Assembly (NCBI GenBank): GCA_026770705.1
Contig: JANJGN010000031.1
Location: 1,178,001 to 1,242,000 of the forward strand
DNA from: Isurus oxyrinchus
Lineage: Eukaryota
Length of the DNA stretch: 64,000 bases
Reading direction: 5' to 3'
The notes under the pieces are model-generated. The model saw only the letters and a list, made by a program, of their open reading frames with translations. It did no database searches and was not told where the DNA came from. This document shows positions 28,690 through 64,000 of this stretch, piece by piece. The translations under genes and the position numbers were made by a program. How positions within the stretch are numbered: position 1 is the first letter of the stretch; each line of letters starts with the position of its first letter.

Positions 28690-31449
28690 GGAATTGTGAT
28701 ATGGTAGCCATAACAGAAACGTGGCTGAGGGAGGGCCAGGATTGGCAGCTCAACTTTCTGGGAAATGGAATCTTCAGGCGAGACAAGGGAGCGAGCAAAA
28801 GAGAAGGAGGCATTCCATTATTAGTTAAGGAGTCAGTTCATGCAGTAAGGAGAGATGATATCTTGGAGGGGGCATCGAATGATCTTTTGTGGGTGGAGCT
28901 TAGGAATAAAAAAGGGCCAGCCACATTGTTAGCTGGTTATTATAGACTCCCAGATAGGCAGCGGGAAATTGAGGAGCAAATATGTGGATAATTCGTGGAG
29001 GTGTGTTAAAACAATAAGAATAAGGTAATTATATTAGCTGATTTCAACTTTCCCAATATTAATTGGGATAGGCACAGGTTAAAGGCTTGGATGGAGTAGA
29101 TTTCTTGAATGTGCACAGGAGAAATTTATAGGTCAATATGTAGAGGATCCACCAAGGGCCGGTGCAGTGCCGGACCAAATTATGGGGAATGAAGCCGGAC
29201 AGGTGGCTGACACGATGGGTGGGGGAGCATTTTAGTGATAGCGACCGGAACATGGTACAATTTAAGCTTATTATGGACAAAGAAATAGACAAGTTGCAAA
29301 AAAAAAAGTTTTGGATTGGGGGAGAGCGGATTTGTGTCAAATAAGCATCTGGCCAAGGTAGACTGGAAACGGCTACTTGTGGGGAAATCTACAGAAGAGC
29401 AGTGGGTGGCTTTCAAGAAGGAAATGGGGAGGGTTCAGGCTCAACATGTCTCCTCTAAGTTGATAGGAAGGAGTTACAAGCCCAGAGAACCATGGATGGC
29501 CAGAGATGTGCAGGGAGCGATGAGAAGGAACAGAGGGGCTTTTAGCAGGTAAAAGGGGAGCAAATCAGCGGAGACATTAGTGGAGTACAGACAGTGCAGG
29601 GTGGACCTTAAGAAAGCAAATTGGAGAGCAAAGAGGATGTATAAGAAAGCTCTGGCTGGTAAAAGTAGGGAGGATAACCAGGGACAGAGCAGGGCCCATT
29701 AGAGACCAATGGGACAATCAATGGGTGGAGCCAGAGGCCATTGGTAGATAGTTGAATGAATTAATACTTCAACTCTGTCTTCATCCAAGAGAATGACGAT
29801 GAAGTTATGGAACTCAGGGAGAGAGACTGCGAGGTTCTTGATCAAAATGAGATAAGGTTTGGCAATGTATTGGACGTGTTGGCAGGCTTAAAAGTGGACA
29901 AATCTTCAGATCTGGGTGATTTGTGTCTCAGACGGCTGAGGGAGGCAAGGGAGGAGATCGCCAGGGCTCTGACACAAATTTTTCACACCCCTCCCCTCAC
30001 GGAGTAAGTGCCAAAGAGCTGAAGAACAGCTAATGTGGTCCTACTCTTTAAGAAGGGTTGTAGAGATAAGCCAGGGAACTACAGAACCGTGAGATCACGT
30101 CAGTGGTAGGGAAACTATTGGAGAAAATCCTGAAGGAGAGAATTTATCTCCACTTGAAGAGGCAAGGTTTGATCAGGGATAGTCAGCATAGCTTTGTCAG
30201 AGGGAGGTCATGCCTAACGAATTTGATTTAATTTTGTGAGGAGATGACCAGGTGTGTAGATGAGGGTCGTGCAGTTGATATAGCTTCTTTGGATTTTAGC
30301 AAAACCTTTGACAAGGTCCCACATGGGAGACTTATAAAGAAGGCAAGCACATTTAATACAGGGTAATTTGATAAGGTGGATTCAAAATTGATTTAGTTGT
30401 AGGAGACAGAGGACGATGACAGAAGGATGCTTTAGTGACTGGAAGCCAGTGTCCACTGGCGTACCACAGGGATCTGTGCTCGTTCCCCTATTATTTGTCA
30501 TTTATATGAAGGACATAGATGACTATGTTGGTGGGTAGGATTAGTAAGTTTGTGGATGACACAAAGATAGGCCCGGTGGTTATCAGTGAGGTTGAGTGTC
30601 TTGGGCTACAGAAAGATATAAATTGGATGGTCAAATGGGCAGATGGAATTTAACTCTACAAAGTGTGAGGTGATACACTTTGGAAGGAGTAATTTGACAA
30701 GGAAGTATTCAATGAATGGTATGACACAATGAAGTTCTGAGGATCAAAGTTACCTTGGCCATAGATCTCTGAAGGTGAAGAGGCATGTTAGTGAGGTGGT
30801 GAAAAAAGCCTATGAGACACTTGCCTTTATCAATCGAGGCACAGATTACAAAAGTAGGTACATCATGTTGGTGTTGTATAAAAGATTGGTGAGGCCACAG
30901 CTGGCGTACTGTGTGCAATTCTCGTAGCCATAGTATAGGAAGGATATGATTGCATTGGAGGGGGTACAGAGGAGGTTCACCAGGATGTTACCTGGAATGT
31001 TAAATTTAAGAACAGAAGTTGATAGGTTCGGGTTTTTTTTTGTTGCAGTAGAGAAGGCTGAGCGGCGACCATATTGGGGTGTACAAGATTATGAGGGGCA
31101 TGGACAGGGTGGATAAGGAGCAGCGGTTCCATTTAGTTGAAAGGTCAGTAACAAGGGGACACAAGTTCAAGGTGAGGGGCAGGCGGTTTAGGGGGGATAT
31201 GGGGAACACTTTTCTACCCAGAAGGCGGTGACAGTCTGGAATACACTGCCTGGGAGGACGGTGGAGGCGGGTTCCCTCACATCCTTTACAAAGTGCCTGG
31301 CTGAGCGCTTGGCACGTCATAACATTCAAGGCTATGGGCCAAGTGCTGGTAAATGGGATTTGTCAGATAGGTCAGGTGTTTCTCGCGTGTCAGTGCAGAC
31401 TCGATGGGCCGAAGGGCCTCTTCTGCTCTGTGTGATTCTGTGATTCTGA
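28690..31449 (+). mobile_element. CR1-type LINE, most of ORF2 (endonuclease + RT), disrupted
   Basis: VAITETWLREGQDWQLN, LWVELRNKKG, GEHFSDSDRNMV, GVPQGSVL motifs; tail (gattctgt)n at 31430-31449. Confidence 0.92.
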
Positions 31450-32219
31450 GAGTGTCTAAGTAAGAGATTTTGAATGTCAGGACTCGTGGAGCCCTCTTTT
31501 ATCCATGGGTGTTCTCGTCCATACTGTTGGGAGAGGAGAGAGCCAGTCAGCTCTGCATATAACCATGCCATGCCCAACCTCTATATACTGGAACCTCGGA
31601 ACAGGAGAAGCCGTTTGGCCCATAGAATCTGTTTGAAGATTCGATGTGACCTTGGCTAAACTGAGATCTAAATCCATGGAAATACACAGAAATATCAACA
31701 CAGAAAGAGACAGAAGGTGCTTCTTCTCGATACCATTGGTTCTGCTGGATCCACTCTCTTCTTCTCCCTTTCAGGTCACCACATGAGCATATCCTTTTAT
31801 TCCTTCATTTGCAGCGTATCCTGGTTCTCCTTAAATTCGTTTCTGTATTTTTCATCTCAAGCAATACCCTGTGGAAATGGGTTCCACATTCTCAGTGCTC
31901 TGTGACTCAATAGTATCTGCTGAATCTCGTTAGATTAATTAGTGGCTATCTAATTTTTAGGGTCCCTCTTTCTGATCTCCCCAAGAAATGCAGATATCTT
32001 CTCCAAATCTACTCGACAGAACCCTTTCGTAATAATGTAAACTATGAAATATAAACAGATTTTAATGAGATCGAGACTTTTGTTATCACACTGAGTGATG
32101 CATATATGATGCATTGAGAGAGACTTTTGTTATCACACTGAGTGATGGACGTATACATCAGTTTGGTAAAGTTGCAAACACAGCATGTTTAAGGATCTCG
32201 GTACACTATGTTAGGGAAA

Positions 32220-33050
32220 GTATCTCCTTCTGTCCTTCTGTTCCACTCTTTCTCTCATTGCTTGAGTCTATCTGCTCCTGTTACAACTACTTTCTTCTCT
32301 TTCCCACAAGTTATCTCTCCCTTTCAACCTCCATCCTCTCTTTTCCAAATACCTGCTTCTAAATACCTTTGTATCCTCCCCGCAGTCACTTCTCTCGCTT
32401 CCTGTCCATCTCCTCTCTTTTTTTGTTTCTTGCTCTTTGACTCTCTTCTCTCTATCTATGTCTCTATGCATCAATTGTGCCACCTCTCGCCCTCTCTTTC
32501 TCGTCTCTCCCACCCTATCTCATTTTTCTCTACCAGCTGTCTCCTTAATTCTCCTTCTTTCTCGATGTTTCTCTGCAGTTCTCTCTGACTTTTTGCCTTT
32601 TACTCCGTCTTTCTAAACCCTATCCATATCTAGTTAACTCTCCCTCTCCCACTCTCTCCTTCTGTCTAGCACACTCTAATTCTGTGTGTGCTTGTCTGTC
32701 TCTCTCCCTCACTCCATTTCCTGCCCTCTCTGCCTATTTACCTATCTCTCTATCATCTTTTCTCCCCCCGCTCTCGCTTTCTATCTCTGTCTCTCTCTGC
32801 CTCTCTCTCACCCGTCTCTCTACCTTTGACTCTCTAGCTTTCGGTCTTTCCCGCCCTGTTATTCTCTTCCCTGGCTTTGCACCATTCCTTTTATCCCTGT
32901 CTCCCTCGGTATCGCCTTTTATTTCTTTTCTCCCCAGACAGCCCCCACCCCCCCACCCCCACCTCCCACCCCCTCTCTCTCTCTCGCTCTCTTTCACTCT
33001 CTCTCGCTCTCACTGAATTCGATCTCTCATCTCTCCCTTCCTTTCTTCCA
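32220..33050 (+). repeat. long polypyrimidine (CT-rich) low-complexity tract
   Basis: composition; similar tracts at 33660-33970, 39570-40170 and 44580-44830, and GA-rich at 48000-48300. Confidence 0.85.
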
Positions 33051-33299
33051 ACACAGTTACACACCCCAAAGCGATTCTTTACTTCAACGAGCAGCCTGCA
33101 TACAAAAATGTCAACAGTAGCATTTTAAGAAATCAGTGTGGGAAGGCAGACTTGATCATAAGATCTATCTTATAGTGTGGCGAAAATATAATTTTAGTTT
33201 TGTCAATGGGTTCAGCGGCATGAGTACAAAAACCGACGAGAAAGCGATAATGTAAGCTGACTTCAAAATCCACGTCCATTGCTATTTCCGTCGGTTGAT

Positions 33300-33670
33300 C
33301 AGACTGGAAAGTACTGACTCAAAACATGTCACGAAGTCGGGGGAAAAAAACATTGAGCAGCTGCACGGAAAAAGGTGAAACGGAAGCGGTGGGATGCAGC
33401 TTTGAGCTCACAGACGTGGCACAGAGTTTCTAAAGTAGGTCGTGGGCCTGAGTTTCACTCTGCGGTTTAACGGAAAGTGCCACCTGCAGCCGCGGGGTTC
33501 TGAGTTTGGAGGATGGCTCGCTGAGATGTTGTCCTCTCATTTCCTCCTGGGTGACAAACTGTCTCTGAAAGCGTGCACCTGCCGCCCGTTTGCAAAGGAA
33601 TGTGGCTGCTGGGTGTATTTAAAAAACTTGCTGATGCACATTTCAGCTGAACATCCGCTTTTCTGCATTT
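33300..33670. promoter_or_regulatory. candidate TCR beta enhancer (E-beta-like)
   Basis: unique, CpG-containing island about 6 kb 3' of C; E-boxes cagctg 33358 and 33644, cacctg 33481 and 33576; RUNX tgcggtt 33461; ETS-RUNX composite aggaatgtggct 33596-33607; ETS cores cggaag 33381 and acatccg 33651. Confidence 0.55.
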
Positions 33671-34589
33671 TGTTTTCATGTAATTTTGCTTCCTGTCGTC
33701 AGCTCTTCGCTTCCACTTACCTTTCTAACTTTTATTGTCAATGCTTTCTGATTCTTTCAATCTTTCTTTCATGCAATCAAACTTTCCCTATTTCTATCTT
33801 TCTTTGCTTCACTTATCCTTTTTTTCATTCCTGTTATTCTTTCTTTCGCTCACATTCATTATTTTCTTCTTTCCTTTCTGCCGGTCTTTGCACCTTTCTT
33901 TCTTACTGATTCCTGTTCTTTTTCTTGCACTCTTTCTCTCCTTCTTTCTTTCTTTCTTTCTCACTTACCTGCTACTAATTGACCTTCATCCAGGAGGCTG
34001 CTAAGCCATTTCAGATGCTTAGTTAAGAGCTAACCACATTTTTTGGGCCTGGAGTCACATCTATCAACAACAATTGTCCTTCCCTAAATGGGCAGAAATG
34101 GACCAGGTGGGATTTTACAACAACTGATGATAGTTTCATCGTCACTGTCTATTCCAGATGTATTTGTTGAATTTGAATTCCACCAGATGTTATGGTGTGA
34201 TTTGAACCCATGTCTCCTTCGGTGCCTGCAATACTAGTCTAGTGGCATTATCATTCCACGACCGTTTCTTCCCTTCATCCAAACATACTCGCTTTATTTC
34301 CAGCTGTCTTTCATTCTTTCATCCCTCCTTTCTAATTGCAGCTCAAGGTGAACAAACACGAATAACAGTGTTAAGGTTTCCAGTCAGGCATGACTGTCCT
34401 TCGAAAGTTCTGAAGAGTCATTTTGGACGGGACACATTAACTTTGTTTCTCTCGTCACAGATGTTGCCAGTTTTTCCAGCGTTTTTTTTTTATTTTAGGC
34501 CTCCATCATCTGTAGTATTTTGTCTTTCTGATTAAATGTGCACTCTTGTGCTGCCTGCTCCCTGTTATGTTATAGACAAAGTCCCTGAG

Positions 34590-34725
34590 ACCTGATAGAT
34601 AAATAGATAGATTGATAGATAGATAGATGGATAGATAGACAGACAGACAGCTAGACAGACAGACAGACAGACAGGTAGACAGACTGATAACAGATAGGCA
34701 TACAGACAGACAGACAGATCGATAA
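34590..34725 (+). repeat. (GATA/GACA)n microsatellite
   Basis: visible runs. Confidence 0.9.
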
Positions 34726-35597
34726 CCAGAGGGCCCATACTTAATGTCTTTGCCAAAATAGCAAGAGGTGACATGCAGAAATTACATAGCGAGATGTGGT
34801 GATCTAGATGCATTTCCTGAAAGGTTGTCAAAGTATTTTGAATAGTCACTTTAAAACGGGTATTTGATATTTACTTAAAAGCGATAACATTTGTAGGATT
34901 ATGTGTTAACAGCAGATGATGGGGAATTGGGACTAATGGAGTACCTCGTTCAAAGAGAAAACACATGCATGACTGGCCAAGTGAATGCCTTCTATTCTGT
35001 GCTGAAATAATCTGTGACTGTTGGAAGGTTAGGAAGAAATAAGAGTTGTGGGACATTTGCTCTTCACGTCTAAGCAATGATTAGGGTTTGGTGGGGTTTA
35101 ATTCCTAATGATTATTCAGCCTGTGGCACTTAGGTAACCAGTCATTGTATTAAGTGATCCAGCTTATGCACACGCCTGCAAACAAGGTAACTATATTATT
35201 AATTTGATATGTTTCCAAACCGTCAATCAACTAGCAACAGCATCACCGGAAGGCAAAGCCGCATAGAAACAGGCAACGGCCATCATCCCCTCGAGCGTCT
35301 TCAGCCTTTCAATGACATTATGGTTAATCTCCACCTAACTCCAACTATCTGTCTCGTAACATGAGACTTAATAATTTTCCCTCACAAAAAGTTCACAATC
35401 TTGGTTTTAACATTGTTATAGACATCAATACCTCCAACCCCTCCTCCACTCCACACGCACCCTAGCCTCAACAGCTTGTTGATGGAAGTGCGTTCCAGCT
35501 TTCCACTAATCATTGTGTCGGGTGCATCCTGACAGTGCCCCCGGGCGGCATGGATCGAATTCTAAGAATAGGTCCACTTGTTCTGAATGTCCAAAGG

Positions 35598-47367: not shown

Positions 47368-47505
47368 NNNNNNNNNNNNNNNNNNNNNNNNNNNNNNNNN
47401 NNNNNNNNNNNNNNNNNNNNNNNNNNNNNNNNNNNNNNNNNNNNNNNNNNNNNNNNNNNNNNNNNNNNNNNNNNNNNNNNNNNNNNNNNNNNNNNNNNNN
47501 NNNNN
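47368..47505. other. assembly gap (138 N)
   Basis: run of n. Confidence 1.
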
Positions 47506-47596
47506 GTAACACATAAAGAGAGTCAGATCTCATACAATTCTTACCGGTTCCCTTTGAGGTTCTTATTAATTTCGCCTATCTCCAAGCATTAATGTG

Positions 47597-48007
47597 TACA
47601 CTCAGGGTGCAGTAAAACACAACCGAGTTATTGGCACACAACCCAGTGGTCTCCAGGTAAAAGTGGGTGTTGTCAGGTTTTCTCGCGGTGAAACCGTCCA
47701 CCTTATCAGTTGGATTGACCATTCTGCCTTAGGTGGAATGGGAATGGTTCTGAGGGTCATGGCCAGGATGCCATCGGTGCCAGTAGAAATAGTTGGTAGC
47801 AGCTGCTTCTGGGTAGAGGCACTCGATGCTGACTGGAGTGCCCGGGCGTTTGGATATGTAAGCGGGATCTGTTGGATCAGCACAGCTGCCACATCTGTAA
47901 GACAGAGAGGGCGAGTGAGAGGACACAGAAACCCGGGTATAGATTGCACTTCGATATCCAGCATGTAGGAGGATAGAGAAAAGAGCAACCAAGCAAAGAT
48001 GGGCCAT
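47597..48007 (-). pseudogene. TRBV: inverted V-beta pseudogene 1 (TRBV30-like family)
   Basis: leader MAHLCLVALFSILLH 47962-48007 (donor reads CT); V exon 47597-47894 VLIQQIP/AYISKRPGTPVSIECLYPEAAATNYFYWHRWHPG...ST*GR...VDGFTARKPDNTHFYLETTGLCANNSVVFYCTLSV with a frameshift and TAA 47729-47731; 23-RSS cacatta(47596-47590)-23-ataagaacc(47566-47558). Confidence 0.9.
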
Positions 48008-48489
48008 AAAGACACCAGGAGGCGGGGAGAGGACCAGAAATTGAGGGCTGCAAATAGAAAGAGGACAGACACTGAGATATGGGGAGAAAAATGTGCGACC
48101 AGTCTACACATCAGCAAGGAAAAAGAAAAAGAGAGATAGAGAGGGTGACTTGAAGACAGTGGGAGAGAGAAAGAAGGAAGAGATAAGTGCACCATCAGGC
48201 AGTGAGGCAGCCAGAAATACAAACAACCATAGACAGAGATAGTGATAGAGAGACAGAGTGAGACAGAGAGAGTGCGAGAGTGATGTGAAAACAGAGAGAA
48301 CGACAATAGATACCAAAAAGTGGTGTTGATGAACAAGTAAGGAGTTAATTCCCAAGGCAATAGCAGTGATGGCAACTGTCACCTCACGGTTCAGCTCCAC
48401 CTTACCATTTAACGTCACGATCCAGAGCTGAGACACAGCAATTCTGAATGTGTGTCTTTATTGTGCGAAATCACCGCGTGTCTGTTGCA

Positions 48490-49722
48490 TGGGCCTTCAA
48501 CCGTGTCCGGCCCATCTCCCGCGCATCCGCCCTCATGCCTTCTCCTCCTTCCCAGAAACATGATAGGGTCCCCCTTGTGCTCACTTATCACCCCACCAGC
48601 CTCTGCATTCAAAGGATCATCCTCTGCCATTTCCGCCAACTCCAGCATGATGCCACTACCAAACACATCTTCCCTTCACCCGCCCGTCGGCATTCCGTAG
48701 GGATCATTTCCTCCAGGACACCCTGGTCCATACCTCCATCACTCCCTACTCCTCAACCCCTACCTATGGCACCTCCCCATGCCCACGCAAAAGATGTAAC
48801 TCCTGCCCCTTCACTTCCTCTCTCCTCACCGTCCAAGGGCCCAAAGACTCCTTTCAAGTGAAGCAGCATTTCACTTGCATTTCCCCCAACTTAGTTTACT
48901 GTATTCATTGCTCCCAATGCGGTCTCCTCTACATTGGAGAGACCAAACGTAAACTGGGCGACCACGTTGCAGAACACCTGCGGTCTGTCCGCAAGAATGA
49001 CGCAACCTCCCTGTCGCTTGCCATTTTAACACTCCACCCTGCTCTCTTGCCCACATGTCTGTCCTTGGCTTGCTGCATTGTTCTAGCGACACCCAACGCA
49101 AACTGGAGGAACAGCACCTCATCTTCCGACTAGGCACTTTACAGCCTTCCGGAATAAATATTGAATTCAACAACTTTAGGTCTTGAACTCCTTCCCTCCT
49201 CCATCCCCAGCCCCTTTCTGTTTCTTCCCCCTTCCTGTTGTTTTTTCCAATAATTTATATAGATTTTTCTTTTCCCACCTATTTCCATTATTTTTAAATA
49301 TTTTTAAAACTTTTATGCTCCCCCCATCCTCACAAGAGCTGTACCTTGAGTGCCCTACCATCCATTCTTAATTAGCACATTCGTTTAATAATATCACCAA
49401 CTTCAACACCTCTGTCTTCTTTTGTTCTTTTGTCTGTGACATCTTTTGATGATCTGCTCCTATCACTGCTTGATTGTCCCTACAACCACACCACCCCCCC
49501 TCCACTTCTCTCCCCCCACCCATCCCGCTCCACCCCCCAACACCTTAAACCAGCTTATATTTCACCCTTCTCCTTGGATTCACCTAGTTCTGTTGAAGGG
49601 TCATGAGGGCTCGAAATGTCAACTCTTTTCTTCTGCACCAATGCTTCCAGACCCACTGAGTATTTCCAGGTAATTCTGTTTTTGTTTTGGATTATCAGCA
49701 TCTACAGTTTTTTGTTTTTATT
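48490..49722 (+). mobile_element. Penelope-like retroelement (GIY-YIG endonuclease region + 3' end)
   Basis: RVPLVLTYHP and HFTCISPNLVYCIHCSQCGLLYIGETKRKLGDHVAEHLRSV. Confidence 0.92.
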
Positions 49723-49956
49723 TTTCGGACAGTTGCATGGGCACTGAGTGGGATTTACTGCCTCCAGTATCATATGCTCGGAAATCTTAACCTGTTCATT
49801 AGCTCCCACTTTTTGGTGAGGTCATCTCTGGGGCAGAGGTATCAAGCACCGTCCCTCTGCTGGCCAGATTAACGCCCAGAGGCTGGCTCGGTCCTGGGCA
49901 CCGTTCTCTACTGCACTGGGTTTTAGGTGCTCTGATCTCTTCCTTGTGTCACTGTG

Positions 49957-50390
49957 GAACTGCCAGGCGCAGTAATACACCCCTGTGTGACTCCCTCGCA
50001 GACTGGACGCTTGCTGGTGGAAAGTAGAGTCACCACTCCTCGAGGCAGTAATACCATCCACCTCCTCCTTCGGCTCAATTTAGTCAGCGTTGGGCGAGTA
50101 GAGGAGCAGCAAGAACTCGCCATTTGTGAGCTGGTGGTGCCAGGAGAACTCTGAGCTGAGAGAACCATGTGCGGAAGAGTGAATTCGAGGGAGGAGTGTT
50201 GTGATTTGGAGATTACAGGTGGATTTTGCTGGACTATGCCCCCTCCTGCACCTGAGAATAGAAGGAAAACAATTAGATTAAAATTTGAAGGGGGTCAAAT
50301 TCAGAGCCAAACTGCCCAAGGAATTAGCGATGGGGACTCACCGTGCAAAAGAAGGGCAGACAGCAAAAATCGAGTTAATTGCCTTTTGAT
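49957..50390 (-). pseudogene. TRBV: inverted V-beta pseudogene 2 (TRBV30/Trbv31-like, ends YYCAWQF)
   Basis: leader (ATC)KRQLTRFLLSALLLH 50342-50390, start codon lost, donor gtgagt; V exon 49957-50251 GIVQQNPPVISKSQHSSLE/HSSAHGSLSSEFSWHHQLTNGEFLLLLYSPNAD*IEPKEEVDGITASRSGDSTFHQQASSLRGSHTGVYYCAWQF; frameshift, first Cys lost, TAA 50080-50082; RSS cacagtg(49956-49950)-23-ctaaaaccc(49926-49918). Confidence 0.93.
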
Positions 50391-51309
50391 TAACAGCTTA
50401 TATAAGAGAAACCGACCAGAATTTGGACAGAGTCATTTACTCCTCTGGGGATTCTGTGGCCGCTTGAAGAGCTGCAGTTCTATTTGATTGGCAGCTTCAG
50501 TCCACTCCAAGTCCACTTCTTGTCTAATTGCTGATTCCTCCAGCCTAAGCCTCCCCCTGCCATCTCCCCATATAACTGAAGAGCTCCCTCCCTTGCATCA
50601 CTGATCGACCTGCTCTGCACCCTCGCCCTTAAAAAGTGGTGCCCGGAAATGAACAACAGTAGTCCAGCTCTGCCTGGGAAAATGAGTTCCCAGTTACGAA
50701 ACATTACAACGAATCGAACTTTGAGAAAGGTGTCGCTCATTTCGATTCATGCATGATACAGCAAATGGGAGAAAATTGCAAGGTATCGTGAGGGTAAAGC
50801 GTCATCTGTCGCCAGCTGATCCTGTGAACAGTTCTGAAGAAGTTGGAATTGATCATTTTACTCTTTTCTCCCTCCACACGTGATTTGCTGAGCTTCTCCG
50901 GCAATTTTTGTTTTTTTCATTCCAAAGAAACCAGGTTGGATCGTAAATCCACATCCGTTGATTCATTATGGATTAGACGGGAAGGAATGTGTTATCTAGA
51001 CTGTTCAGTTGAGATGGAGAGCCGCTTCATGGAAGCACCTCAGTATAACCAATTAGAAAGGAGTTTTCCAGACATATAGGCCCGTCTTGTGATGGTCTCC
51101 TCTGTTCTGCATACTAACGTTTGGGACCTAGAATTACCGAAAATGCACAGTGCAAAAACGGGCCATTTGGGCAAACAGAAGCAGGCATTTCTACTGCACA
51201 CGAGTCTCCAAACAACTTTCTTCATCTCACCCATCAGCATCTCCATCTGTTCCTTTCTCCCTCATATCTTTATACAGCTTCCCCTTTAACTTGATCTAAG
51301 CTGTTCACT

Positions 51310-52090
51310 TCAAACCGCCCCCCTGAAGCAACCAACCCCCACCCACTCCACCACTCCTACACATCCCCACAACCGCCCCCACCCCGACACCACCCCCCAA
51401 AACACCCCAAAGCTCCACACAACCACCCTCCCACACCACTGTGCAAACACCCTCCACCCCATACCTCCCCATAGGCACCCACACCACCCGCACCCCCTCA
51501 GGACTATCCACCCACACCTCCCCACAACCGCCCCCCACGCCACACATCTCCTAAAAACCACCTCCATCCCACGCACCACCCCACAACTACTCCCAACACC
51601 AACACCTACCGATAGCCACCACCCACCCCGCACATCTCTAGCCAACTACCCCTCCCACACCTCCACACAACCAACGTAACTCCCCATACATCCCCACAGC
51701 CACCCCTTCCACGGCTCCCCACAACACCCCATCCCCACACTTCCCCACAGCTAGCCCCTAATTCCCAAACCTCCCTAAGTCGACCCCAAAACCCCACAGC
51801 TCCCCACAACCACCCCCTACCCACCGCACCTTCACCACAAACAAAGCCAATCCTCCGCGCATTCCGTCAGCCACCCATCCCAAGCATCCACACAAACCCC
51901 TCCCCACCCCCACAATGATGCCCCGCTCCCCACACCTCCCTAAGTCCACCCCAAAGCCCTGCACCTCCCCACAACCAGCCCCACCCCACACAACTTCCCC
52001 ACTACCATCCCATATCCCCACACACCGCCCCCCAAAGCCACCCCTACCACGAATGTGCCATCCCCTCCCCCCCCACCCCCCCCCCAACAC
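51310..52090 (+). repeat. C/A-rich low-complexity tract (G-run-rich on the - strand)
   Basis: composition, many C3-C7 runs. Confidence 0.85.
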
Positions 52091-52552
52091 TGCCCGCTCA
52101 TGATAGCGAATTTCACATTGTCATCAGTCTCGGCTTCAGTGAAGAGACAAATGTGCTGTGGCCAAATTAGTTGATGAAGTAAAGATATTAGGGAAACCAG
52201 GCTGGGAGGAGGGCACCTTGGCAGCCCCTGCCACTTCCGTGTTCCTGAGAGCTCCAACCCTAACAATATGATAATGCCCCCCGCCCCGTGCATTTTGATT
52301 AACATACACCCACAGCTCCCCACATCCCCCCACCCCCCCACTTCCATCATTCTGATTGCCCTAAGTCTCAGTGACAGACCAGCCTCACCCTCTGTACTAA
52401 GTGTAGTCAATAGTCATCCTGCTCCCTAGCAGTGTGGATAACAAGGCCTGGCGCCCTGAGAGCCATTCGCCTAAAACTGAATGGTTGAAGAAGGCTATCT
52501 TTTAATGATTAGGGGTTTTTTTCATGACGCAGAACTGTTCTCAAGCACTGTG

Positions 52553-53296
52553 CTCCATCTCTAGCTGCACAGTAATAAACTGCTGTGTCTGACCCTTTGA
52601 CGCTATTCAAGCGGAGCTTGGATTTCTTATCCCTCGCAGTTAGGGTGATGGTAAACCCGGCATTAATACCCTTTTTGTAGTTTTCTTGGCTCCCCATCAC
52701 TTTGTACCGGATCAGAGCGAGCCCTTCCCCGGGGCGTTGCCGATATCAGAGCATGGTAGTGCGGGCTGTTTGATTCTGGTAACAGTTCAGTTCAGCAGCT
52801 CGTAGTTCTTTGACGGCGGGTGCATCCGGCCACTGATGCAGCACACCTATCGAGGGACCATCTGCAAATAAATTTCGCACATTATTAAGTAAATGTTAGA
52901 CCAGGCAACCCTAAAGTTATCTTTGAGAAGAAGCTACCCTGTGAAATTAAGAGCAATTTCATTTGTCCCGTAGTGATACAAGCCTTTCCCCTTTTCACCT
53001 ACATATCAAGTCTCATTTTGAAAGTTACTATTGAATTTGCTTCCACTGCCCCTCCAGGCAACGAGTTGCAGGTCAAAACAACTCGCTGCCTGGTGCAAAA
53101 TCCGCCTTATTTCGCTCCCTCGTTCATTTGCCATATGCTTTAATGGCATGTTGTTACGTTCATCTCTTGCTGCGGCTTGTTTGTAAAATGTGCCTTTAAT
53201 AAGAGTCGCACAATTAACCCTACCGAGATGTCAATATGTCCCCTGCTTACATGGTACCAGAAGAAAAATGATGAGGGTGAGACAATCTGAAGGCAT
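52553..53296 (-). pseudogene. TRBV: inverted V-beta pseudogene 3 (single stop at the conserved Trp)
   Basis: leader MPSDCLTLIIFLLVP 53251-53296, donor gtaagc; V exon 52553-52861 VLHQWPDAPAVKELRAAELNCYQNQTARTTML*YRQRPGEGLALI...SDTAVYYCAARDG, TGA 52746-52748; RSS cacagtg(52552-52546)-23-aaaaaaacc(52522-52514). Confidence 0.94.
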
Positions 53297-53359
53297 CGTG
53301 GATTGACCCTGAATCCAAGGTCCATCAGGTGCATTGTCATTAAATGCTGTACTGCGTGA

Positions 53360-53420
53360 GGCCGCCTATGACGTTGATGCAACGTGAGTGCGTCAGATTG
53401 TAAAAGGATGAGGAAGTGCC
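53360..53420 (-). promoter_or_regulatory. V promoter with CRE-like and ETS motifs
   Basis: tgacgt 53369-53374, tgcgtca 53389-53395, gaggaagtg 53410-53418; about 70-120 bp upstream of the leader ATG. Confidence 0.5.
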
Positions 53421-55899
53421 AAACGGCGGCTTCAATCTCTCACACCAGCGAAATTCAAGCTTCGCATCTGCGTCTATGTGAAAGACCAGTGCAAATCTTG
53501 TCCTTATCGGCCACATCGCAATATATCCTTTCAGCAAGATGTAAATTCAACCCTGAGCGCTAGTGTAAAGTGAGTGCCCAGACCTCGCATTATTCCTCCT
53601 GGATTCCAACTTGAGCTACTCAGGGGATCACAAGTGTATCCAAGAATCACTGCAAGGAGTGAAAAGAAGAAAGGAATAGATGGGTAGCATGCCGTGGGGT
53701 GGGCGGGAAGGCAACCTCATGTGGATCACAAACGCCGGAACAGAAATTTGAACTTAGATAACGCCGTTACTGTTATCAGACGCTCCAGGGCACGTCAAAG
53801 AGACATTATTAAACAAAATATGACACCGAAACACAGGGGACCAAAAGCTTAACCAAAGAGGTTGGCTTTAAGGAGTGTCTTGTAGGAAGAAAGTGGGGTG
53901 AACCAGGGACCTAGACAGATTAGATGGTGAGAAAATGTTCCCGTGTGTGAAGGGGTGGAGTACGAGATGTAAAGTTAAGTCTGGAATCCACTGCCTGAGG
54001 GACTGGTGGAGGTAGGTTCAATCAAAGCATTCAAAATGCAGTGAGATCTATCTGAAGCGGAAGAATGTGCAGGGTGACGGGGGGGATGGCAGGAGAATTG
54101 CAGAAGAGAATGAAATTTCTCATTTGCAGTGATGGTGTAGCAGGATGGCCCAAATGGTCTCCTTCTGAGCTGTAAAAATTCTGTGAGCAGGGTAGGAGGG
54201 AACAGCAGAGCCTGAGGCCCAAGGAACTGAAGGAACCAATGGCGTAGTGATTATAATGGCGGATTCTCAGAATTAGAGAAGCACAGTTGCCTCGCAGGGC
54301 ATTGGGACTGGAGAAATTACGGAGACAGGGACGGGAGAGGCAATGGAAGCATTTCAAAGCAAGGATGTGGATTTTGAAATCAAGACTTTACTTGACTGAG
54401 TGTCAATGTACGTCAGCGAGCAAGGAGTGATGGGGAAATAAGACTCTGTGCAAGTGAAGACATGGGCATCAGAGTTTTGGATGACCTCCAGTTTACAGAG
54501 GGTGCAATGTGGCAGAGCAGCCAGGGGTGTGGTGGAATATGAAAGCCTATTTGGAGCAAAGACATGGATGAGAATTTCAGCAGCAGGTGATTGAGAAAAA
54601 GGAGTTGTGCAACATCAAGGGTTTGCAGGGGTGGAAATAGGTGGTTTTACTGCTGACACAACAGGAGGCGGAGCGTTCATCTCGGCGTGAAAAATGACCC
54701 AACGTCAATGAATAGATGGGTTTAATTCCAGATTGCAGCGAGGGAGAGAGATGGAGTCAATAGGTGGGTAAGGGAGTTTGCAGAGGGACTGGAAACAAGA
54801 TCTTCAGTCGTCCCACTATTTAACTGGACTGAATTTCTCTTCATGCAGTACTGGATGTCAGATGAGTCGTCTGATAATATAGCACCAATGGAGGCGGTGA
54901 GGGAGGTCCTGGTGAAGGGGAGGTGCTGATAGGGTGAAGTGGAGATAGATGGGAAGGGTTTATATGGATGATAAGCATTGGTTACCTGGGTGCAATCGCC
55001 CACTTTGCAAAGCAGAAACTTTATAAAATAAATAATAAGATCAGCTGAGGTTGGATGGGTGAATATTACTGACCTACATGTATTGTGTTTAAGCCATTTA
55101 AAGATAGCGGCACCATGAGGGTCTGGGGTTAACCAAGCCTCTGTCATCTCTTAGTTAATCTCAGACGTTTCCACTCCAAAAACATGAGATTGCCCAAACC
55201 CCAGTTTCCCTGAACCTTAACACCACCACCACCCTCTCGCCCCCCACCACACCAATGTCCATAGATTTACTTTGGCTCCTGGTCAGGCAATGTCTCGATT
55301 TTGAATTATTCTTGTGTACAAATATTCTCATAGCCACGTCCCCTCCTTTCGCTGTAAACTCCTCCAGCCCATACAGCTCCCCCTATTCCAGGAAACTCCT
55401 TCAGTCTCTACAACCCTCCCTATCTCTGTAATCTCCTCCTGTAGATATAACCCCCTCGATCTCTGTATTGTCCTCGAGCCTATGCAAAACTCCTTACATA
55501 TATAATAGCTCTTCCAGCCCATACGACTCTCTGTATCTCTGGAAACTCTTCCAGCTCCAAAAACCTTTCGTATCTTTGCAATCTACTCCAGCTCCTAGAA
55601 CCATCCAAGATCTCTGCAACCCTCAATTCTGGCCGCCTGAGCATCCATCTGATTTCCATTACTCCATCATGGCTCTCCACGCCTGGGAACTTAAGTTCTG
55701 GAATTTCACCCTAAAGGGTCAAGATTCTCTCTCCTCCTTTAAAGTGTTTCTTAACTCTCTACACATTGATCATTTTTTGTTTAATTCTCCAGATCCCTTC
55801 TCATGTAGTTATATGGCAAGTTGTATCTTTCTGGTTAATGATTCCGTGCAGCTGGTTCATTTACAAAAAGAACATTAGTGAGTTTACATATTACAGAGC

Positions 55900-56975
55900 A
55901 GCATTGTCAGTGGGTCGGTACTGACGGAGTGCTGCAGGATCAGAGCGTCAGTACTGAGGGAATGCTGCACTGCCAGAGGGTCGCTACTGAGGAAGTGCTA
56001 CACTGTGAGAGGGTCAACACATAGGGAGCACTGCACTGCCAGGGGGTCGGTACTGACGGAGTGCTGCAGTGCCAGAAGATCATTGCTGAGGAAACGTTTC
56101 ACTGTCAGATTGTCAGCACTGAGTGAATGCTGCACTGCCTGAGTCTCAGCACTGATGGAGTGCTGCACTGTTCGAGGATCAGTACTGAGGGAGTGCTAAT
56201 CTGTTGGAGGATCAGTACTGAGGGAGTGCTGAACAGTGAGGCTCAGCACCGAGAGAGTGTTGCACTGCCGGAGGTTCAGTGCTGAGGGGATGCTACACTG
56301 ATTAAGGATCAGGACTGTGGGAGCGCTGCATAGTTGGAGTGTCACTACTGAGGTAGTGCTGCAAAGCCTGAGGGTGAGCACCGAGGGAGCGTTCCATTGT
56401 TGGGTGGTCAGAACTGACAGAATGCTCCACAGTTGGAGTGTCCATACTCAGAGATCGTTGCACAGCTTGACGGTCAGTACTGAGGGGCCGCTGCACTCTT
56501 GGAAGGTCTATCCTGAGGGAGTGCTTCAATGTCTGAGGGTCAGTACTGTGGGAGTGATGCACTGTCGGAGGGTCAGTACTGAGGGAGTGCTGCACTGTCT
56601 GAGATTCAGTACTAAGAAAGATCTGCATTTGCTGAGCGTCAGTAAAGAAGAAGTGCTGCTTTGTGGACGTTTCATTAAAAGAGATCGTTGTGCTCTCAGT
56701 GGGAGATAATGAGGAGAGCTGTACCGTTGGAGGGTCAGTACTGAGAGAGTGCTGCACAGCCTGTGGGTCAGTACCGATTAAGGTATGCATATTCTGAGGG
56801 TCAGTACAGATGCAGTGCTGTACTGTCTCAGGGTCACTAGTGAGGGAGCGTTGTACTATCAGAGGGAGGTACTGGGGGAGTGCTGCACTGCTAGAGGGAG
56901 GTACTGAGGTTGTGCTGTTTTTTTTTCAGAGTTTTCCGTATGAGGCGTTCATCCGAGGCCCCGTCTCTTCTCTTG
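55900..56975 (+). repeat. large 33-bp minisatellite array expanded from a SINE core (DeuSINE/SacSINE-like)
   Basis: about 30 degenerate units of cagtactgagggagtgctgcactgtcggagggt, running into tccgtatgaggcgttcatccgaggccccgtct. Confidence 0.85.
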
Positions 56976-57473
56976 GGGGATCTGTACCCAGCTCCTCCGC
57001 TCCTATTGAGGGAGCAGCTGGAAACACTGGGCCTTCGTTCACAACAAGGCATCTTCGCTGAAAGGCACATAATCTGGTTATATCTTTCATTCTTTCTCTG
57101 TGGGATCTTACTGTGTCCCAAAATTTCAAAAGTCACGAGAGGGTTTTTCTTTGATGGGGAGGTATTTTACCGGTAGATCTATGGAAGAGAATCAAAGTTA
57201 GCGTTTCAGGACAAGGACTATTCTTCCAAACCTTAACTGGAAATGTTAACTCTGTTCCTCTCTCTACAGATGATGCTGAGTATTTCCAGCATTTTTCATT
57301 CATATTTCACATTTCCTGCATCCGGAATATTTTGTATTTTGTTTTATATTATGGGCTGGGGCGTGTCGAGGTTGTGAAAGTGGCTACAGAAATGCAGGCT
57401 CTATCTCTCTTCCATTGCGTTACGAGGTGGTGAGGGTTTTTGAAGGGTCGTTACCCCATACTACACCGCTGTG

Positions 57474-58972
57474 CATCACTTGAGGCACAGAAATACATTG
57501 CCGTGTCTGCAGGTGAGGCGCTCGGGAACTTCAAAGCAGAGTTTCTATCACCGTAACCAGTGATTTCAAACCGGGTTTGTTCCACCACGTAATGGATCGT
57601 ACCTCCGATCCGAATGTACCCGATCAACGTGAAACCCTGACCAGCTGAATGGCGGTACCAGAGCATGGCTTGAGGAGTGGATTCCCGTTCATTGCAGTTA
57701 ATTGTTGCCAGCTCGCCCTCTGCTACCACCAATGTGAGTGGAGTTTGCAGAGGCCGCAATCCTTGCGTTAGATCTAAGAAGAACAATGAAGCGGTTCATC
57801 GAATCTTAATGCAGATTAAGAGCCATTCGGCTATCCGCAATTAAACATCAGTAGTGATGCAAGCACGTGCGGACAGTTTCCACTTTACGCTGGCTTTATT
57901 ATTCATTCAAAAAACAATAAAAACATCAATTTATTTTTGAACCAGTGGAATATTAATCGACGCTTACAACCCCCATTCAGGCGATCATCAAATCCATTGA
58001 CTGAATGTTAGCCGGGTATCAAAGATTAGTAGTTTAGTCTAATCGAATTGTTCATGTCAACACTGATGTTATTTGTAAGAACATAAAATTGTTTCCCGCC
58101 GGCTCTCTATATCCCTTATGCCCTGATAAATCAAACATCTACCCATCGCAGCCTTGAATATACTCAGTAATGCAGGAAATACAACCCTCTGGGTTACAGA
58201 ATTCCAAGTGCTCACAGCCCTTTGAGCGAAGAGATTTCTCCTCACCTCAACCCTAAATGGTCGGCGCCTTATCCCGAGGTGGTTACCCCATGTTATAGAT
58301 TCCCCAGCCAGGAGAATAGAACCTCTCAGTGTATTATCTTTTCAAACCATTTCAGAAGTCTATGAGTTTCAGCAAAATCAACTCTAATTCTTCTAAACAC
58401 TGGAGAGCATATTTCTAAATTATTCAGTATCGGAACACAGGACCTTCCTGTCATTCCAGAGACGAATCCAGTCAACTTTCTCAATGCTGCCTACAATGGT
58501 TCTTTCTAGATGCAAACCAAAATTGGACGCAGTTCTCGTGGTATCGTCTCACCAAGGCCCTGTATAGTCTTAGTTACTTGTGTACACCATTCCCGAACAG
58601 TAAAGGCCGACATTCGATTTGCCTTCCTCATCACTTCTTGTAACGTGGGCGCTAGATTCTGTGTTCCTTGCACAAGTGCACCCAGGTCTCCCGGAATATA
58701 AGCATTTGGAGGTTTCACGCCTCTCGCAAGTGAATAAACTCACATCCCCCATATTATTTTCCCATCTTCTACGTTTTTACCTATTCACTTCACCTGTGTA
58801 TGCCTCTGCAGCTTTTGTCACGCCGCAGCTTACTGAGGAAGGTCTGTATTTTCTCAACAAACTTGGACAGATTTCTCCCGGTCTCTTCGCCCTAGTATGT
58901 AATATAATCGTACGGAGGATACTTATACGGCAGAAGTTGTATAGAGATAAAAGAGATACAACATATTTGCAT
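57474..58972 (-). pseudogene. TRBV: inverted V-beta 4: open V exon but leader splice donor mutated (ORF/pseudogene)
   Basis: V exon 57474-57773 LTQGLRPLQTPLTLVVAEGELATINCNERESTPQAMLWYRHSAGQGFTLIGY...ADTAMYFCASSD with both Cys and the Trp intact; RSS cacagcg(57473-57467)-23-tcaaaaacc(57443-57435); inferred leader MQICCISFISIQLLP 58927-58972 followed by ATAAGT instead of GTAAGT. Confidence 0.88.
58085..58850 (-). mobile_element. decayed CR1-type LINE in the V4 leader intron
   Basis: DLGALVQGTQNL...RKANRMSAF; CR1 3' UTR motifs. Confidence 0.7.
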
Positions 58973-59809
58973 ATTTGGATGGAAAAATGCTAAAATTGAG
59001 GGCTGCAATGAACGTGTCCTCATGCCAAGTGACTCGATTTCTGACTGAAACTGCAGGTCAGTGCAGATATGCACCCAAGACCTACCCCGGAAATGTCGTT
59101 CTTCTAGATGCTGTAGCCACGTTAATGATAAACAGGTGTAACAATGTGCTCCCGTGTGTTTTCCTGGAATTTTAAAGCATGTTGAAATTAGCCTTGGCTT
59201 GGGTGCACACTGCATTGTGAGCCAGCCTATAATCTATATGTAACTTAATAAAAAAGTGCCAGAAAGGTTGCACAGGAGCGTTCGCCATAACCCTTTGAAC
59301 ACAGAGCAGCGTATATCGTTGTAGCTCATTAAGTAGCCGTCTGGCCTCCGGGCGGTCGTACATTAAAGACCGGCCTCAGATACTAGAGTACAAGTATCTA
59401 AGCGGATATTGCAATGTAGAGCTGAGGGCTTGCTGAACTGTCTGTGGGGCAGTATGAAGCGAGTGCAGCGTTTCAGCAGGTTGAGTGCTAAGGCGTCTTA
59501 GGTGTTGACACACAGAATGTTCGGGGAAATATTTTCACCCTTAATTAACAAGATTGAAATGTTGCTATATGTGGGAGTTTATAGCGTAAATTTGAGACGC
59601 TATCTCCGAGATGACAGCAATGCCTGAACTTTAAAATAGCTGATTTATTGGCTATAAGGGGCTTTGGGGGGATGCCAAGGTTATGCAGAGTGGCACAGAA
59701 ACGGCTGATTACGATAGGTCAAAGGGCTGCGCATGTGCAGCCATACCCACAGTGCACATGGTGCCGAGGAGGTGTTGATGTCAGCCTGTGACAAGTTTGT
59801 ACCGCTGTG

Positions 59810-60088
59810 CCAATAGATGGCAGAGTCTGTCAGCTCGGGGTTGTTCAGTTGCAGGGTGAATTTATTGCTTCCAACATCGAGCGGGGCGGCGATTCGCTTC
59901 TCGAAATCGGGCCCAGACATCGTGCCCGCTGCATATCCACTTCATCGCGGCTCCCTCTTTCCGCTACCAAAACATACAGTAGAGAGTCATGCTAGCTCCC
60001 TCCAGACTGCAGCCCAGACTGAAGGGCTGTCCCGGGCGGATGACAGACGCCGATGGAAACTGGACCACAGAGGGTGCAGCTCGAACCC
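59810..60088 (-). pseudogene. inverted V pseudogene 5 with IgH-V-like features, truncated at the RSS
   Basis: PSVVQFPSASVIRPGQPFSLGCSLEGASMTLYCMFW*RKEGAAMKWICSGHDV/GPDFEKRIAAPLDVGSNKFTLQLNNPELTDSAIYW, followed directly by cacagcg(59809-59803)-23-atcaacacc(59779-59771); TAG 59964-59966; frameshift; decayed leader probably about 60995-61049 with donor gtaaga. Confidence 0.88.
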
Positions 60089-60389
60089 CTAGACCAGAGT
60101 TAAAGAAAGAAACACGGCTTAGAAAACAGGATGATCCAGGAAAAAAGGCCATTCCGCCTACCATGACGCTGCTAGCTCTTTAAAAGGACTGTCCAATTAC
60201 TCCCACCCTCTGCCGCTTGCCCTCAGCTCTGCAAATTCCATCTTCACCTTTTAATTATGTACCTATTTAGTTTTTAATCGTATTACAGTTTACATAGATT
60301 CACGCATTTCCCCGTATTTTATCGTCGGTGGAGAATATTTGAGAGGTTAACACTTAAAATAGATCGAATGTCCCACCAATAAGGTAAGA

Positions 60390-60938
60390 CAAAAGCAAAC
60401 AACTGCGGATGCTGCAAATCCAAAACAAAAACAAAAATACCTGGAAAAACTCAGCCGGTCTGGCAGCATCTGTGGAGAGGCGCACAGTCATCTGTGGAGA
60501 GGCGCACAGTTAACGTTTCGAGTCCACATGACTCTTCAACAGAACTAAGTAAAAATAAAAAAGAGGTGAAATATAACTTAGTTTATGTGGGGGGGGGGGG
60601 GGGCAAGAAGAGCTGAATAGAGGGCCAGTGATAGGTGGAGATAACCAAAAGATGTCACAGACAAAAAGGAAGGACACCTTCAACACCTCTTTGTCCTTTT
60701 GTCTGTGAGATCTTTTGGTTATCTCCACCCATCACTGGCCCTCTATCCAGCCTTTCTTGTCCCACCCACCACCACCCCCCCCCCCCCCCCCCCCCCACTT
60801 AAACCTACTTATTTGTCACCTCTTTTCTATTTTTACTTAGTTCTGTTGAAGGGTTATTCGGAGTCGAAACGTTAAGTGTTCTCCTCTCCACAGATGCTGC
60901 CAGACCTGCTGAGTTTTTTCCAGGTATTTTTGTTTTTG
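60390..60938. mobile_element. Penelope-derived inverted-repeat insertion with 12-bp target-site duplication, in the V5 intron
   Basis: aataaggtaaga at 60378-60389 and 60939-60950; the two halves are reverse complements of the Penelope 3' terminal region. Confidence 0.85.
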
Positions 60939-61069
60939 AATAAGGTAAGAAAGCTGAAGGACATTCTAGACGAGAAACCCATCGCATTTCTTACGAGGCG
61001 ACACGGAGGAATAAGGTGCAAACACAATGAAAATTCAGCCAGATGCAATCGAACTGCGCCTGAAGATCG

Positions 61070-61195
61070 GACAACCAATCGCGTGTTTGGACCACACAGA
61101 TCAACAGCCTGAACCAATGAGAAGCGTATAATTCGCTTATGATGGATTTTTGTTTTTGAGAAATCAGTACAGAAGGCCACCTGTGATGTCAAAAG
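61070..61195 (-). promoter_or_regulatory. candidate V5 promoter
   Basis: tgtgatgtca 61182-61191 resembles the V-beta CRE-like decamer AGTGAYRTCA; two ccaat motifs near 61075 and 61114. Confidence 0.45.
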
Positions 61196-61399
61196 GACAT
61201 TTTCGGAGGAGGAAATAATTAGAAATGCTTCTCTATCAACCGAGATATCGCTCTGAAGAAGAGAAAATGAGTTGGACATTGCATTGGCTAATTGTGGAAT
61301 TTTCCTCTGTCGACAGTCCGCTGCCTTTCCTACATTATGGGGGTACCTGGTCTTCCAAAACGTAGTAGCAGAGCACAGGGAGTGAACAAGGCATATGAA

Positions 61400-62055: not shown

Positions 62056-63419
62056 CTACTTGCAAAGCGTTTGGGGGCGCCTTGGGGTTACACCATTACT
62101 ACAGGAATACACATTTTCTGATTCTCTTCCTGAGCTTTGTATATGACGCAAGTGTATAGAGTGTCAAACCATTGAGATAAACCTGCCCGGCCCAAGCAAG
62201 CCCCCACCTTCCTGGTGAAAAGACACGCCCCTCTTTCTGTGATTGGCTCTAAGTGGGCGGGATGTGGGCTAGGACAGTCACTGGGTGATGTTCTGCTTAA
62301 GGTGTTACAGAACTTAGGGCAGAAACTGGAATCGTCCGCTCAATCTGGGCAAAGCAAACCAGGAAGGATATAGTAGGCTTGGAGGGATTGCAAAATGGAC
62401 TCACCAGAATGATACAGGGTATTTTATGCACATATTCTTTCATGGGATATGGGGATCGCTGGCAAGGCCAGCATTTGTTGCCTATCCCTAATTGCTCTTG
62501 AATTGAGTGGTATTTCAGAGAGTAGATAAGGGTGAACCACGTTGGACTGGAGTTAAATGCAGGCATTAGATATTTTTTCACCGCAGACAATAATAGAATT
62601 GTTCCATAGTCAGCATTACTCAGACTAGCTTTCAATCCCATATGTTTTTATCATTCATTGCATTTAAATTCCTCCAGCCCCCGTGTTAGGGTATGAACCT
62701 ATATCCCCTAGAGTATTACCACCACACCACACCCTCCACTGTTATCAAGAAATAACTGATTAAGTTAATTTACATCTGCGTTTCCTTGAGTACAGAAAAT
62801 GCGGGCGGCGAACTGATGTGAGTTTTTGGCATTTTAGAAGGAGTTTCAGGTGAACAGATGAAGCTGTTCTTTCCTCCAGAGTCGGGAACCAGAACAATAT
62901 AACTTCACAATTAGGACCAGACCGTTCAGGGAGAGGTCAGGAAACATTTGATCAGACAAAGCAAAGGGGAAAACTGGAACTTTTGCACCCCCCCCCCCCA
63001 ACATAAAAAAGGATGGTCATTGCTGGTGGTCGATTGGGCATTTCAAATTAAAATTTATAGATTTTCCTTCTTTAGTTTATTGAGCAATGTAGACTGGTTG
63101 CGATTGAATAAAGGTCATCTATCATCTAATTGAATTAAATGACGCATTGCATAGTGGCAATGTCATTGGACAACAAATCCAGAGATGCAAGATAATGCTC
63201 CAGACCACGGGTTCCACTCCAACCTTGGCAACTGGAGGAATTTGAATTCAATGCATTAATAAACATCTTCAATCTTGAGCAAGGAAACCTTCTGCAGATT
63301 AGCAACTACTGCCAGATCCAGTTGCCCATCCCCACCTCTCCGCCTTAACTCACCCACCATCCAATTCAGTTGATGAATCAGTAATCCTCCATGTCGAATT
63401 CTAATTGTAAAAAAAAAGC

Positions 63420-64000
63420 TGAGCATGCCAATCAAGGACACAGAATGTTTACAGTGCTGGGCGCTTCAATGTCCATCACCAAGGCTGTCTCAGTAGCACC
63501 ATTACTGGCTGAGTCCAAAGGGTTATAGCTTCGAGACTGGGCCTGCGATAGGTACTGAGGAAGCCAAGCAGGAAACATTTACCTGACTTCATCCTCACCA
63601 ATCTAACTGTCGCAAATCCATCTGTCCATGACAGTGTTGACAGGAGAGACCACTGCAAGGTCTTCATTGATAAAATGTCCCATCTTCACATTAACAATAC
63701 TGTCCATTGTATAGTGTGGTACTATAACTATGCTAAATGGATTTCAAACAAATCAACAACTCAAAACTGGGCATCGACGAAGTGCTGTGGGCCATCAGCA
63801 GCAACGGAATTAAAATCGAACACAATCTGTAACCACATGGCCCCACATATCCCCCCCATCCCCCACCCACCACTCTATAACATTACCATCAAGCCAGGAG
63901 AACAAACCAGGAGTTCAATGACGAGTCGAGAAGGAGGTGCCCAGGCAACACCAGGTACAGCTAAAAATGAGCTATCAGCCTGGTGAAGCCACAACACAGG
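63420..64000 (+). mobile_element. LINE endonuclease-region fragment (runs off the window)
   Basis: cttcaatgtccatcaccaag...cctgacttcatcctcacc...agagaccactgcaaggtc, similar to GDFN-H / LDL-L / SDH motifs of APE domains. Confidence 0.6.

Follow-up and report, generated by a model that had tools for sequence, protein, structure and literature searches.

The window analysed here is a 64,000-nucleotide stretch of the Isurus oxyrinchus genome (contig JANJGN010000031.1, hereafter C31, positions 1178001-1242000). It carries a T-cell receptor (TCR) beta (TRB) translocon followed, 3' of its constant (C) gene, by five variable (V) segments in inverted orientation. The translocon comprises a diversity (D) segment with 12- and 23-spacer recombination signal sequences (RSS) and a GGGACAGGGGG core, joining (J) segments with the FGxG motif, a C-beta exon and a transmembrane (TM) exon. 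Positions are those of the window unless a contig is named, and the features that bear on the inverted segments are as follows.

47558-47894, minus strand (exon 47894-47597): V1, a pseudogene ending in CTLSV, of the PAYIS subfamily of the CAWS clade; likely counterpart of bamboo-shark TRBV11
49918-50384, minus strand (exon 50251-49957): V2, a pseudogene ending in CAWQF, with a 90-nucleotide (nt) intron; likely counterpart of bamboo-shark TRBV10
52514-53296, minus strand (exon 52861-52553): V3, a pseudogene ending in CAARDG, with a leader and a 389-nt intron; likely counterpart of bamboo-shark TRBV09
57435-58972, minus strand (exon 57773-57474): V4, ending in CASSD, with an open exon, a good RSS and a leader ATG at 58972; likely counterpart of bamboo-shark TRBV08
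59771-60088, minus strand (exon 60088-59810): V5, a pseudogene ending in AIYW; an atypical V for which no leader was found
4586-4598, plus strand: D-beta 1, sequence GGGACAGGGGGGA, with a 12-spacer RSS on its 5' side and a perfect 23-spacer RSS on its 3' side
5050-13095, plus strand: J-beta cluster of unit 1, nine J with the FGxG motif, all 3' of D-beta 1
22283-24764, plus strand: C-beta 1, with an immunoglobulin (Ig) exon at 22283-22632, a hinge exon at about 22953 and a TM exon at about 24654-24764

All five V segments were found where the original prediction had placed them, with the ends it gave, and each carries a heptamer, a 23-spacer and a nonamer pointing at D. These signals are near consensus in V3 and V4 and weak in the other three: that of V2 reads best with a spacer of 22, that of V1 is degenerate (CACATTA..ATAAGAACC), as is that of V5, whose nonamer has three mismatches. 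Pairwise nt identities of 52-61% separate the segments into five families, where at least four had been proposed. The distances from V1-V5 to the 5' RSS of D-beta 1 are 43.0, 45.4, 48.0, 52.9 and 55.2 kb, in agreement with the predicted inversions of 43-55 kb.

The prediction did not mention lesions; all five segments are defective. None retains the full set of functional features (leader, splice sites, open exon and Cys23/Trp41/Cys104), four having broken exons and one a broken leader donor. V1 has a frameshift and a TAA at 47731, V2 an AGG start codon, a frameshift and a TAA at 50082, and V5 a TAG at 59966, a frameshift near 59913 and a deleted Cys104. The single lesion of V3 is a TGA at Trp41 (52748). 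In V4, the leader exon was located using the leader of its catshark orthologue (E 2.5e-5), and its phase-1 donor has changed from GT to AT (ATAAGT at 58926). A contig of a DNA run, possibly from the assembly's own sample, is identical to 57345-60390 with 0 differences and 0 gaps, so the lesions of V4 and V5 are not assembly errors. Those of V1-V3 rest on the assembly, since reads over 47660-61300 (one raw DNA run, about 4% of it read, and three RNA-type contig runs) were swamped by repeats and gave the V exons no usable cover. Judged by their sequences, none of the five is predicted to be functional in this genome, and as a working system they are likely dead; the loss of V3-V5 is likely recent.

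Under the rules of V(D)J recombination, joining of a minus-strand V with a 23-spacer RSS to the 12-spacer RSS of D-beta 1 inverts the 43-55 kb between them, D-J-C included, and the signal joint is retained. The proposal that the inverted segment would carry J and C is consistent with this arrangement. No enhancer, which was also expected there, was identified: a search by conservation between the two arms described below and among three D-J-C units gave no motif cluster and only a likely last-exon acceptor near 27843-27905. A second complete D-J-C unit lies on the minus strand 130 kb downstream (C31:1347-1328 kb), with a C 92% identical in amino acids (aa), an identical D, nine J and a TM exon. 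A downstream minus-strand unit had been raised as a possible owner of the five Vs; such a unit does exist, but it sits behind them. Joining of V1-V5 to its D (D-beta 2) would leave the coding joint on an excised circle. Because this unit lies behind V1-V5 on the same strand, inversion to D-beta 1 is their only productive route.

The two units belong to a large inverted duplication, whose parts in and next to the window are listed here.

345-42301, plus strand: left arm of the inverted duplication; its mirror at C31:1351602-1308317 holds the second, minus-strand D-J-C
47368-47505, no strand: 138 N, a masked stretch or assembly gap and the sole N in 1 Mb
62161-64000, minus strand: start of CAWS-family repeat units that carry three more minus-strand V pseudogenes just past the window
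C31:1243850, 1247709 and 1250079, minus strand: these three further V pseudogenes, with plus-strand mirror copies at C31:1290-1302 kb

The two arms differ by 14.8% over 37,708 aligned bases (about 85% identity), whereas this organism differs from close relative B by about 2.9% (66 of about 2270 bases), and the mirror duplication is therefore old. A divergence of 15% is also too large for the second D-J-C to be an assembly or haplotype artefact, which was ruled out. V mapping covered C31:708-1712 kb and gave 103 matches, to which V5, missed by the V profile, was added by hand; all lie inside 844-1601 kb. Between the two C genes there are eight minus-strand Vs (V1-V5 and three of CAWS type, which bears out the suggestion that the array continues beyond the window), followed by five plus-strand Vs. 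The exon is broken in 12 of these 13 central Vs, and the thirteenth is V4 with its broken leader donor. Three pairs of central Vs mirror one another at 85, 82 and 84% nt identity, so the inverted block predates the mirror duplication. Open exons were found in one of the 13 central Vs and in 36 of 81 Vs of the outer same-direction arrays, which can join by deletion (Fisher p 0.013, with recent tandem copies counted as independent, which inflates the count, and leaders ignored).

Several other features mark this part of the contig. At C31:844-1120 kb there are three tandem relic blocks, two of them 96-97% identical, composed of plus-strand and minus-strand Vs; two of the three contain a broken minus-strand C, and D or J were not detected there. 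The axis of the palindrome (C31:1265955-1278352) is a 12 kb repeat element with an inverted copy, 85% identical, at 813749-825876. At C31:1439-1601 kb, the CAWSLH (TRBV30-like) family has recently expanded in tandem, with a repeat period of about 22 kb; this expansion is the source of most open V exons in the locus, and these too are all inverted relative to C-beta 1.

The closest published counterpart is the TRB locus of the bamboo shark Chiloscyllium punctatum. In Supplementary Table 3 (supplementary file 16) of Giorgetti et al. 2023 (PMC10322711), it is laid out as 15 plus-strand Vs, a minus-strand unit of C1, J and D1, three minus-strand Vs, two plus-strand Vs, a plus-strand unit of D2, J and C2, and 15 minus-strand Vs. 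The last four Vs ahead of C1 are listed there as TRBV08 (functional, F), TRBV09 (open reading frame, ORF), TRBV10 (F) and TRBV11 (F), three of the four being "transcribed functional". Their tabulated RSS offsets, 17/20/16/16, are those of V4/V3/V2/V1 in the same order, and an offset of 20 occurs in one of the 35 Vs of that table. Introns of 1153/389/90/419 nt compare with about 809/377/88/407 nt, three of the four being alike; that of V4 is unlike that of TRBV08, and the donor of V1 was guessed. This correspondence is based on order and gene anatomy, not on tabulated sequences. Sequence comparison gave V4 orthologues in bamboo shark (70%) and catshark (69%; two matches among three candidates), and a bamboo-shark V with 61% identity to V3; in a tree of 55 rows and 91 columns, orthology support was 100/100 for V4 and 98/95 for V3. 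Consecutive bamboo-shark gene models on one strand place a CAWS-type V before a V4-like V, and a V4-like before a V3-like V. The catshark orthologue carries the annotation "secreted immunoglobulin domain 1". Given this agreement of TRBV08-11 with V4-V3-V2-V1 in gene order and RSS offset, and in intron size for three of them, the inverted block is likely ancestral in these sharks.

A V with an RSS offset of 18, unique in the bamboo-shark table, precedes D2 there, and a V with this offset here precedes a minus-strand C remnant at C31:1099 kb; this remnant and another at 912 kb are probably what survives of a decayed head-to-head partner. Together with the bamboo-shark layout, the placement of this V suggests that the ancestral layout was head-to-head and that its second unit was lost to decay in this lineage, no later than about the time of the mirror duplication. 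We conclude that V1-V5 are probably what is left of an ancestral inverted TRBV block of several families, now in decay at the centre of a locus duplicated tail-to-tail. In the ancestor, as in the bamboo-shark table, two D-J-C units would have stood head-to-head, with an inverted V array of several families behind each. In this lineage, one unit may have decayed to the C remnants and the other half been duplicated in mirror image. The central Vs, usable by inversion alone, would then have lost function, and the outer arrays would have kept or expanded theirs. In close relative B, contigs of guessed RNA status cover V4 and V5, and the eight listed V4 substitutions create no stop. The locus can be viewed as a natural experiment in which Vs that depend on inversion are all defective, whereas many of those able to join by deletion are intact.

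Several observations weigh against this interpretation, beside the qualifications given with the Fisher test and the TRBV08-11 match. V1-V5 have no mirror copy in the second arm, and paralogues of V1 and V2 sit upstream of minus-strand C remnants. The catshark V4 orthologue lies on a 24 Mb record, whereas the sole C-beta match found is on a 226 Mb record. No signal joint or rearranged read was seen in this organism, and in none of its four RNA-type runs did a listed piece fall on a V exon, a result uninformative on expression as no run is recorded as RNA. None of 14 Ephrin_lbd matches (EPH receptor) falls on C31, so the 3'-flank synteny of amniotes was not shown.

It is very unlikely that the block is still a working inverted repertoire, with V4 expressed through a cryptic splice site or an intact allele and the lesions private to one animal. 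V4 does retain an intact exon and RSS, and its 69-70% identity across two other shark orders exceeds that of C-beta; V3 has one stop only. A contig of close relative B, its RNA status being guessed, leaves the V4 match 11 nt before the RSS with seven unlike letters on the junction side, as at a V-D junction. However, the GT dinucleotides near the end of the V4 leader are out of phase, V1, V2 and V5 carry two or three lesions each, and the DNA contig repeats the letters of V4 and V5 exactly.

Also very unlikely is the idea that V1-V5 form a normal 5' array belonging to a minus-strand D-J-C now deleted or concealed by the N stretch. A candidate is the 58.5 kb contig C2826 (53% GC), which has a third intact D-J-C beta unit at 19078-35490 (C 57% aa identity to C-beta 1, D core GGGTCAGGGGAGC, at least six J) and no V, none being present in the 23 kb upstream of D-J-C. 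V2-like and then V1-like genes also stand ahead of the minus-strand C remnants at C31:912 kb and 1099 kb. A location of C2826 inside the N stretch was nevertheless rejected: its ends share no near-identical sequence or overlap with the N flanks, and its GC content differs from the 39-50% of 4-kb bins in the window. In the bamboo-shark table, the 35 kb that separate TRBV11 from C1 contain no D-J-C, and TRBV-type genes on scaffold C163 could be C2826's own array. To the left of the N stretch, the sequence carries on the mirror of the second arm in the order that the right side predicts. A mis-oriented join at this point, also considered with the original prediction, is not indicated; the orientation of the join is supported indirectly, by the locus being mirror-symmetric and by synteny with the bamboo shark.

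The origin proposed here, an ancestral inverted block, bears on the relationship to mammalian TRBV30. An intact CAWSLH-type V of the locus has, as its best matches among single-V TCR chains, the V-beta of 5XOV and the beta chain of Mel5 (about 80 bits, the next single chains reaching about 55); Mel5 uses TRBV30 (PMC5887915). V1 and V2 join the shark CAWSLH clade with a support of 97/98 in trees without any TRBV30 sequence, and V3-V5 fall outside the CAWS clade. TRBV30 was absent from the 60 best solved structures for the V1 subfamily and from the 18 matches of a homologue search with an alignment of 12 Vs. A tie to the TRBV30 lineage may tentatively be drawn for the CAWS-type family alone (V1, V2 and the three Vs just beyond the window). 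An origin of the inverted position as a young by-product of the mirror duplication, with no old tie to the inverted 3' Vs found in other vertebrates, is hardly credible. It would fit the obvious rearrangement of the locus (three tandem relic blocks, palindrome, tandem expansion), the occurrence of the CAWS family in both orientations and the absence of TRBV30 from the 60 best structures for the V1 subfamily, but the mirror pairs place the block before the duplication, the same V order faces a C in the bamboo-shark table, and the CAWSLH matches lead to TRBV30. The suggestion that the mammalian singleton is a remnant of a larger ancestral block holds insofar as the block is probably old, with the same four Vs in the same order at a bamboo-shark C; the link to TRBV30 itself extends, tentatively, to the CAWS-type Vs only. 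The tie to the bamboo-shark array speaks for an ancient origin of inverted Vs behind C-beta and for larger numbers of them in the past, with mammalian TRBV30 as a leftover.

V5, the atypical V of the block, is single-copy in the genome. When it was queried with X at its breaks, the best matches among solved structures were antibody heavy chains or constructs containing them. In its own genome, it scored 39.8 bits with a non-rearranging VJ exon, 36-37 bits with nine heavy-chain V (VH) genes (31-34% identity) and at most 14.5 bits with 11 TRBV of its own locus. The best match lies in a cluster of non-rearranging V-J exons (one frame, no RSS) at C2:2.25-3.61 Mb. A tree of 57 rows and 96 columns includes V5 in neither the TRBV clade (93/93) nor the VH clade (99/97), and groups it weakly (88/70) with atypical Vs of eel gene models that also hold TRBV-type domains. 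The approximately unbiased (AU) test rejected neither V5 with VH (p 0.22) nor V5 with TRBV (p 0.315); assignment as a plain IgH V would find no support in the tree and is not rejected by this test. As described, the eel Vs appear to resemble salmonid TRBV6 (long CDR1, short hydrophilic CDR2), a likeness of descriptions. In close relative B, one contig of guessed RNA status (contig depths 2.5-8.2) covers V5 with indels that remove the frameshift, and an RNA-type contig, its status likewise guessed, ends where the V5 acceptor lies; its 158 letters upstream of this point do not match, the pattern expected of a spliced leader. Published accounts of Ig-like Vs in TCR loci (VH-delta, TAILV and VH-to-TCR-delta trans-rearrangement; PMC12227049, PMC12529555) and of atypical teleost TRBV (salmonid TRBV6, PMC10464911) describe, like V5, atypical Vs within a TCR locus; the Ig-like Vs in these accounts belong to TCR-delta, whereas V5 sits in beta. 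A bolder proposal holds that the inverted block is as old as jawed vertebrates and carries both the TRBV30 lineage and an IgH-type V (V5). In sharks that retain it intact, this V would be joined to D-beta through inversion, and the resulting VH-type TCR-beta chains would be a beta counterpart of VH-delta that current models expect to be selected against. We consider this unlikely, and regard V5 as a lead toward an unusual TCR-beta V.

In unit 1, the Ig exon of C-beta 1 shares 96% identity with one Carcharodon protein and 49-62% with 18 other shark proteins, which places the source among sharks near the lamnids. Besides its nine J, degenerate J-like copies occur at 4154, 11872 and 16800. A comparison of 4100-4200 with 5890-6160 shows that the J at 5946 and its 3' flank were copied upstream of D (4154), without a clear RSS, and a Carcharodon gene model contains the same copy. 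The unplaced scaffolds C163 (1.1 Mb), C1481 and C1134 carry many V genes, of which the four tested cluster with horned-shark TRBV; they probably supply the Vs of a second TRB locus, to which C2826 may also belong. Horned-shark gene models show a near-identical C-beta on at least four scaffolds, some with one or few Vs, and this species appears to have several TRB units rather than one translocon.

Multi-family inverted V arrays are already known, even in a shark (bamboo shark), and the contrast with the single inverted V of mammals in the original prediction overstates the novelty of the present one. Human TRBV30 joins by inversion, and its signal joint stays in the chromosome (PMC11264764). 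Multiple inverted genes have been described in tuatara (five inverted TRBV; inverted TRBV form a weakly supported clade; PMC11754216), in newt (three inverted clusters, families 9-14, mostly expressed) as well as in alligator and axolotl (PMC12698447), and the axolotl map shows an inverted cluster A (PMC12529555). Zebrafish and catfish have one or few inverted V (PMC9247247). PMC11754216 traced the inversion only to amniotes, some amphibians and salmonids, and PMC12227049 cites inverted V after C in beta and delta loci as a sign of common origin. The Vs of this shark resemble the 3' inverted TRBV of tetrapods (human TRBV30, mouse Trbv31, tuatara, newt, axolotl and alligator) in lying 3' of TRBC and opposite to it, with a 23-spacer RSS and predicted joining by inversion. 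They differ in representing five unrelated families, only some of the CAWS clade, in that none is functional, and in the lack of an EPH receptor gene on C31. As reported for the double TRB loci of salmonids and pike (PMC10464911, PMC9247247), two complete V-D-J-C sets in opposite orientation lie on one chromosome; those sets are described as head-to-head, with Vs in the middle and near-identical C genes, in contrast to the tail-to-tail sets found here, with C genes 92% identical in aa and non-coding arms at 85%. A literature search that reached few subscription papers turned up no account of a lamniform TRB locus or of a tail-to-tail TRB. The bamboo shark shares multi-family V arrays aimed at the 3' end of TRBC and two oppositely oriented D-J-C units. 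In that species, the units are head-to-head and the inverted arrays lie outside and are mostly transcribed, whereas here the units are tail-to-tail and the inverted block lies inside and is defective. New here are the tail-to-tail arrangement, the decayed state of the central block and the atypical V5.

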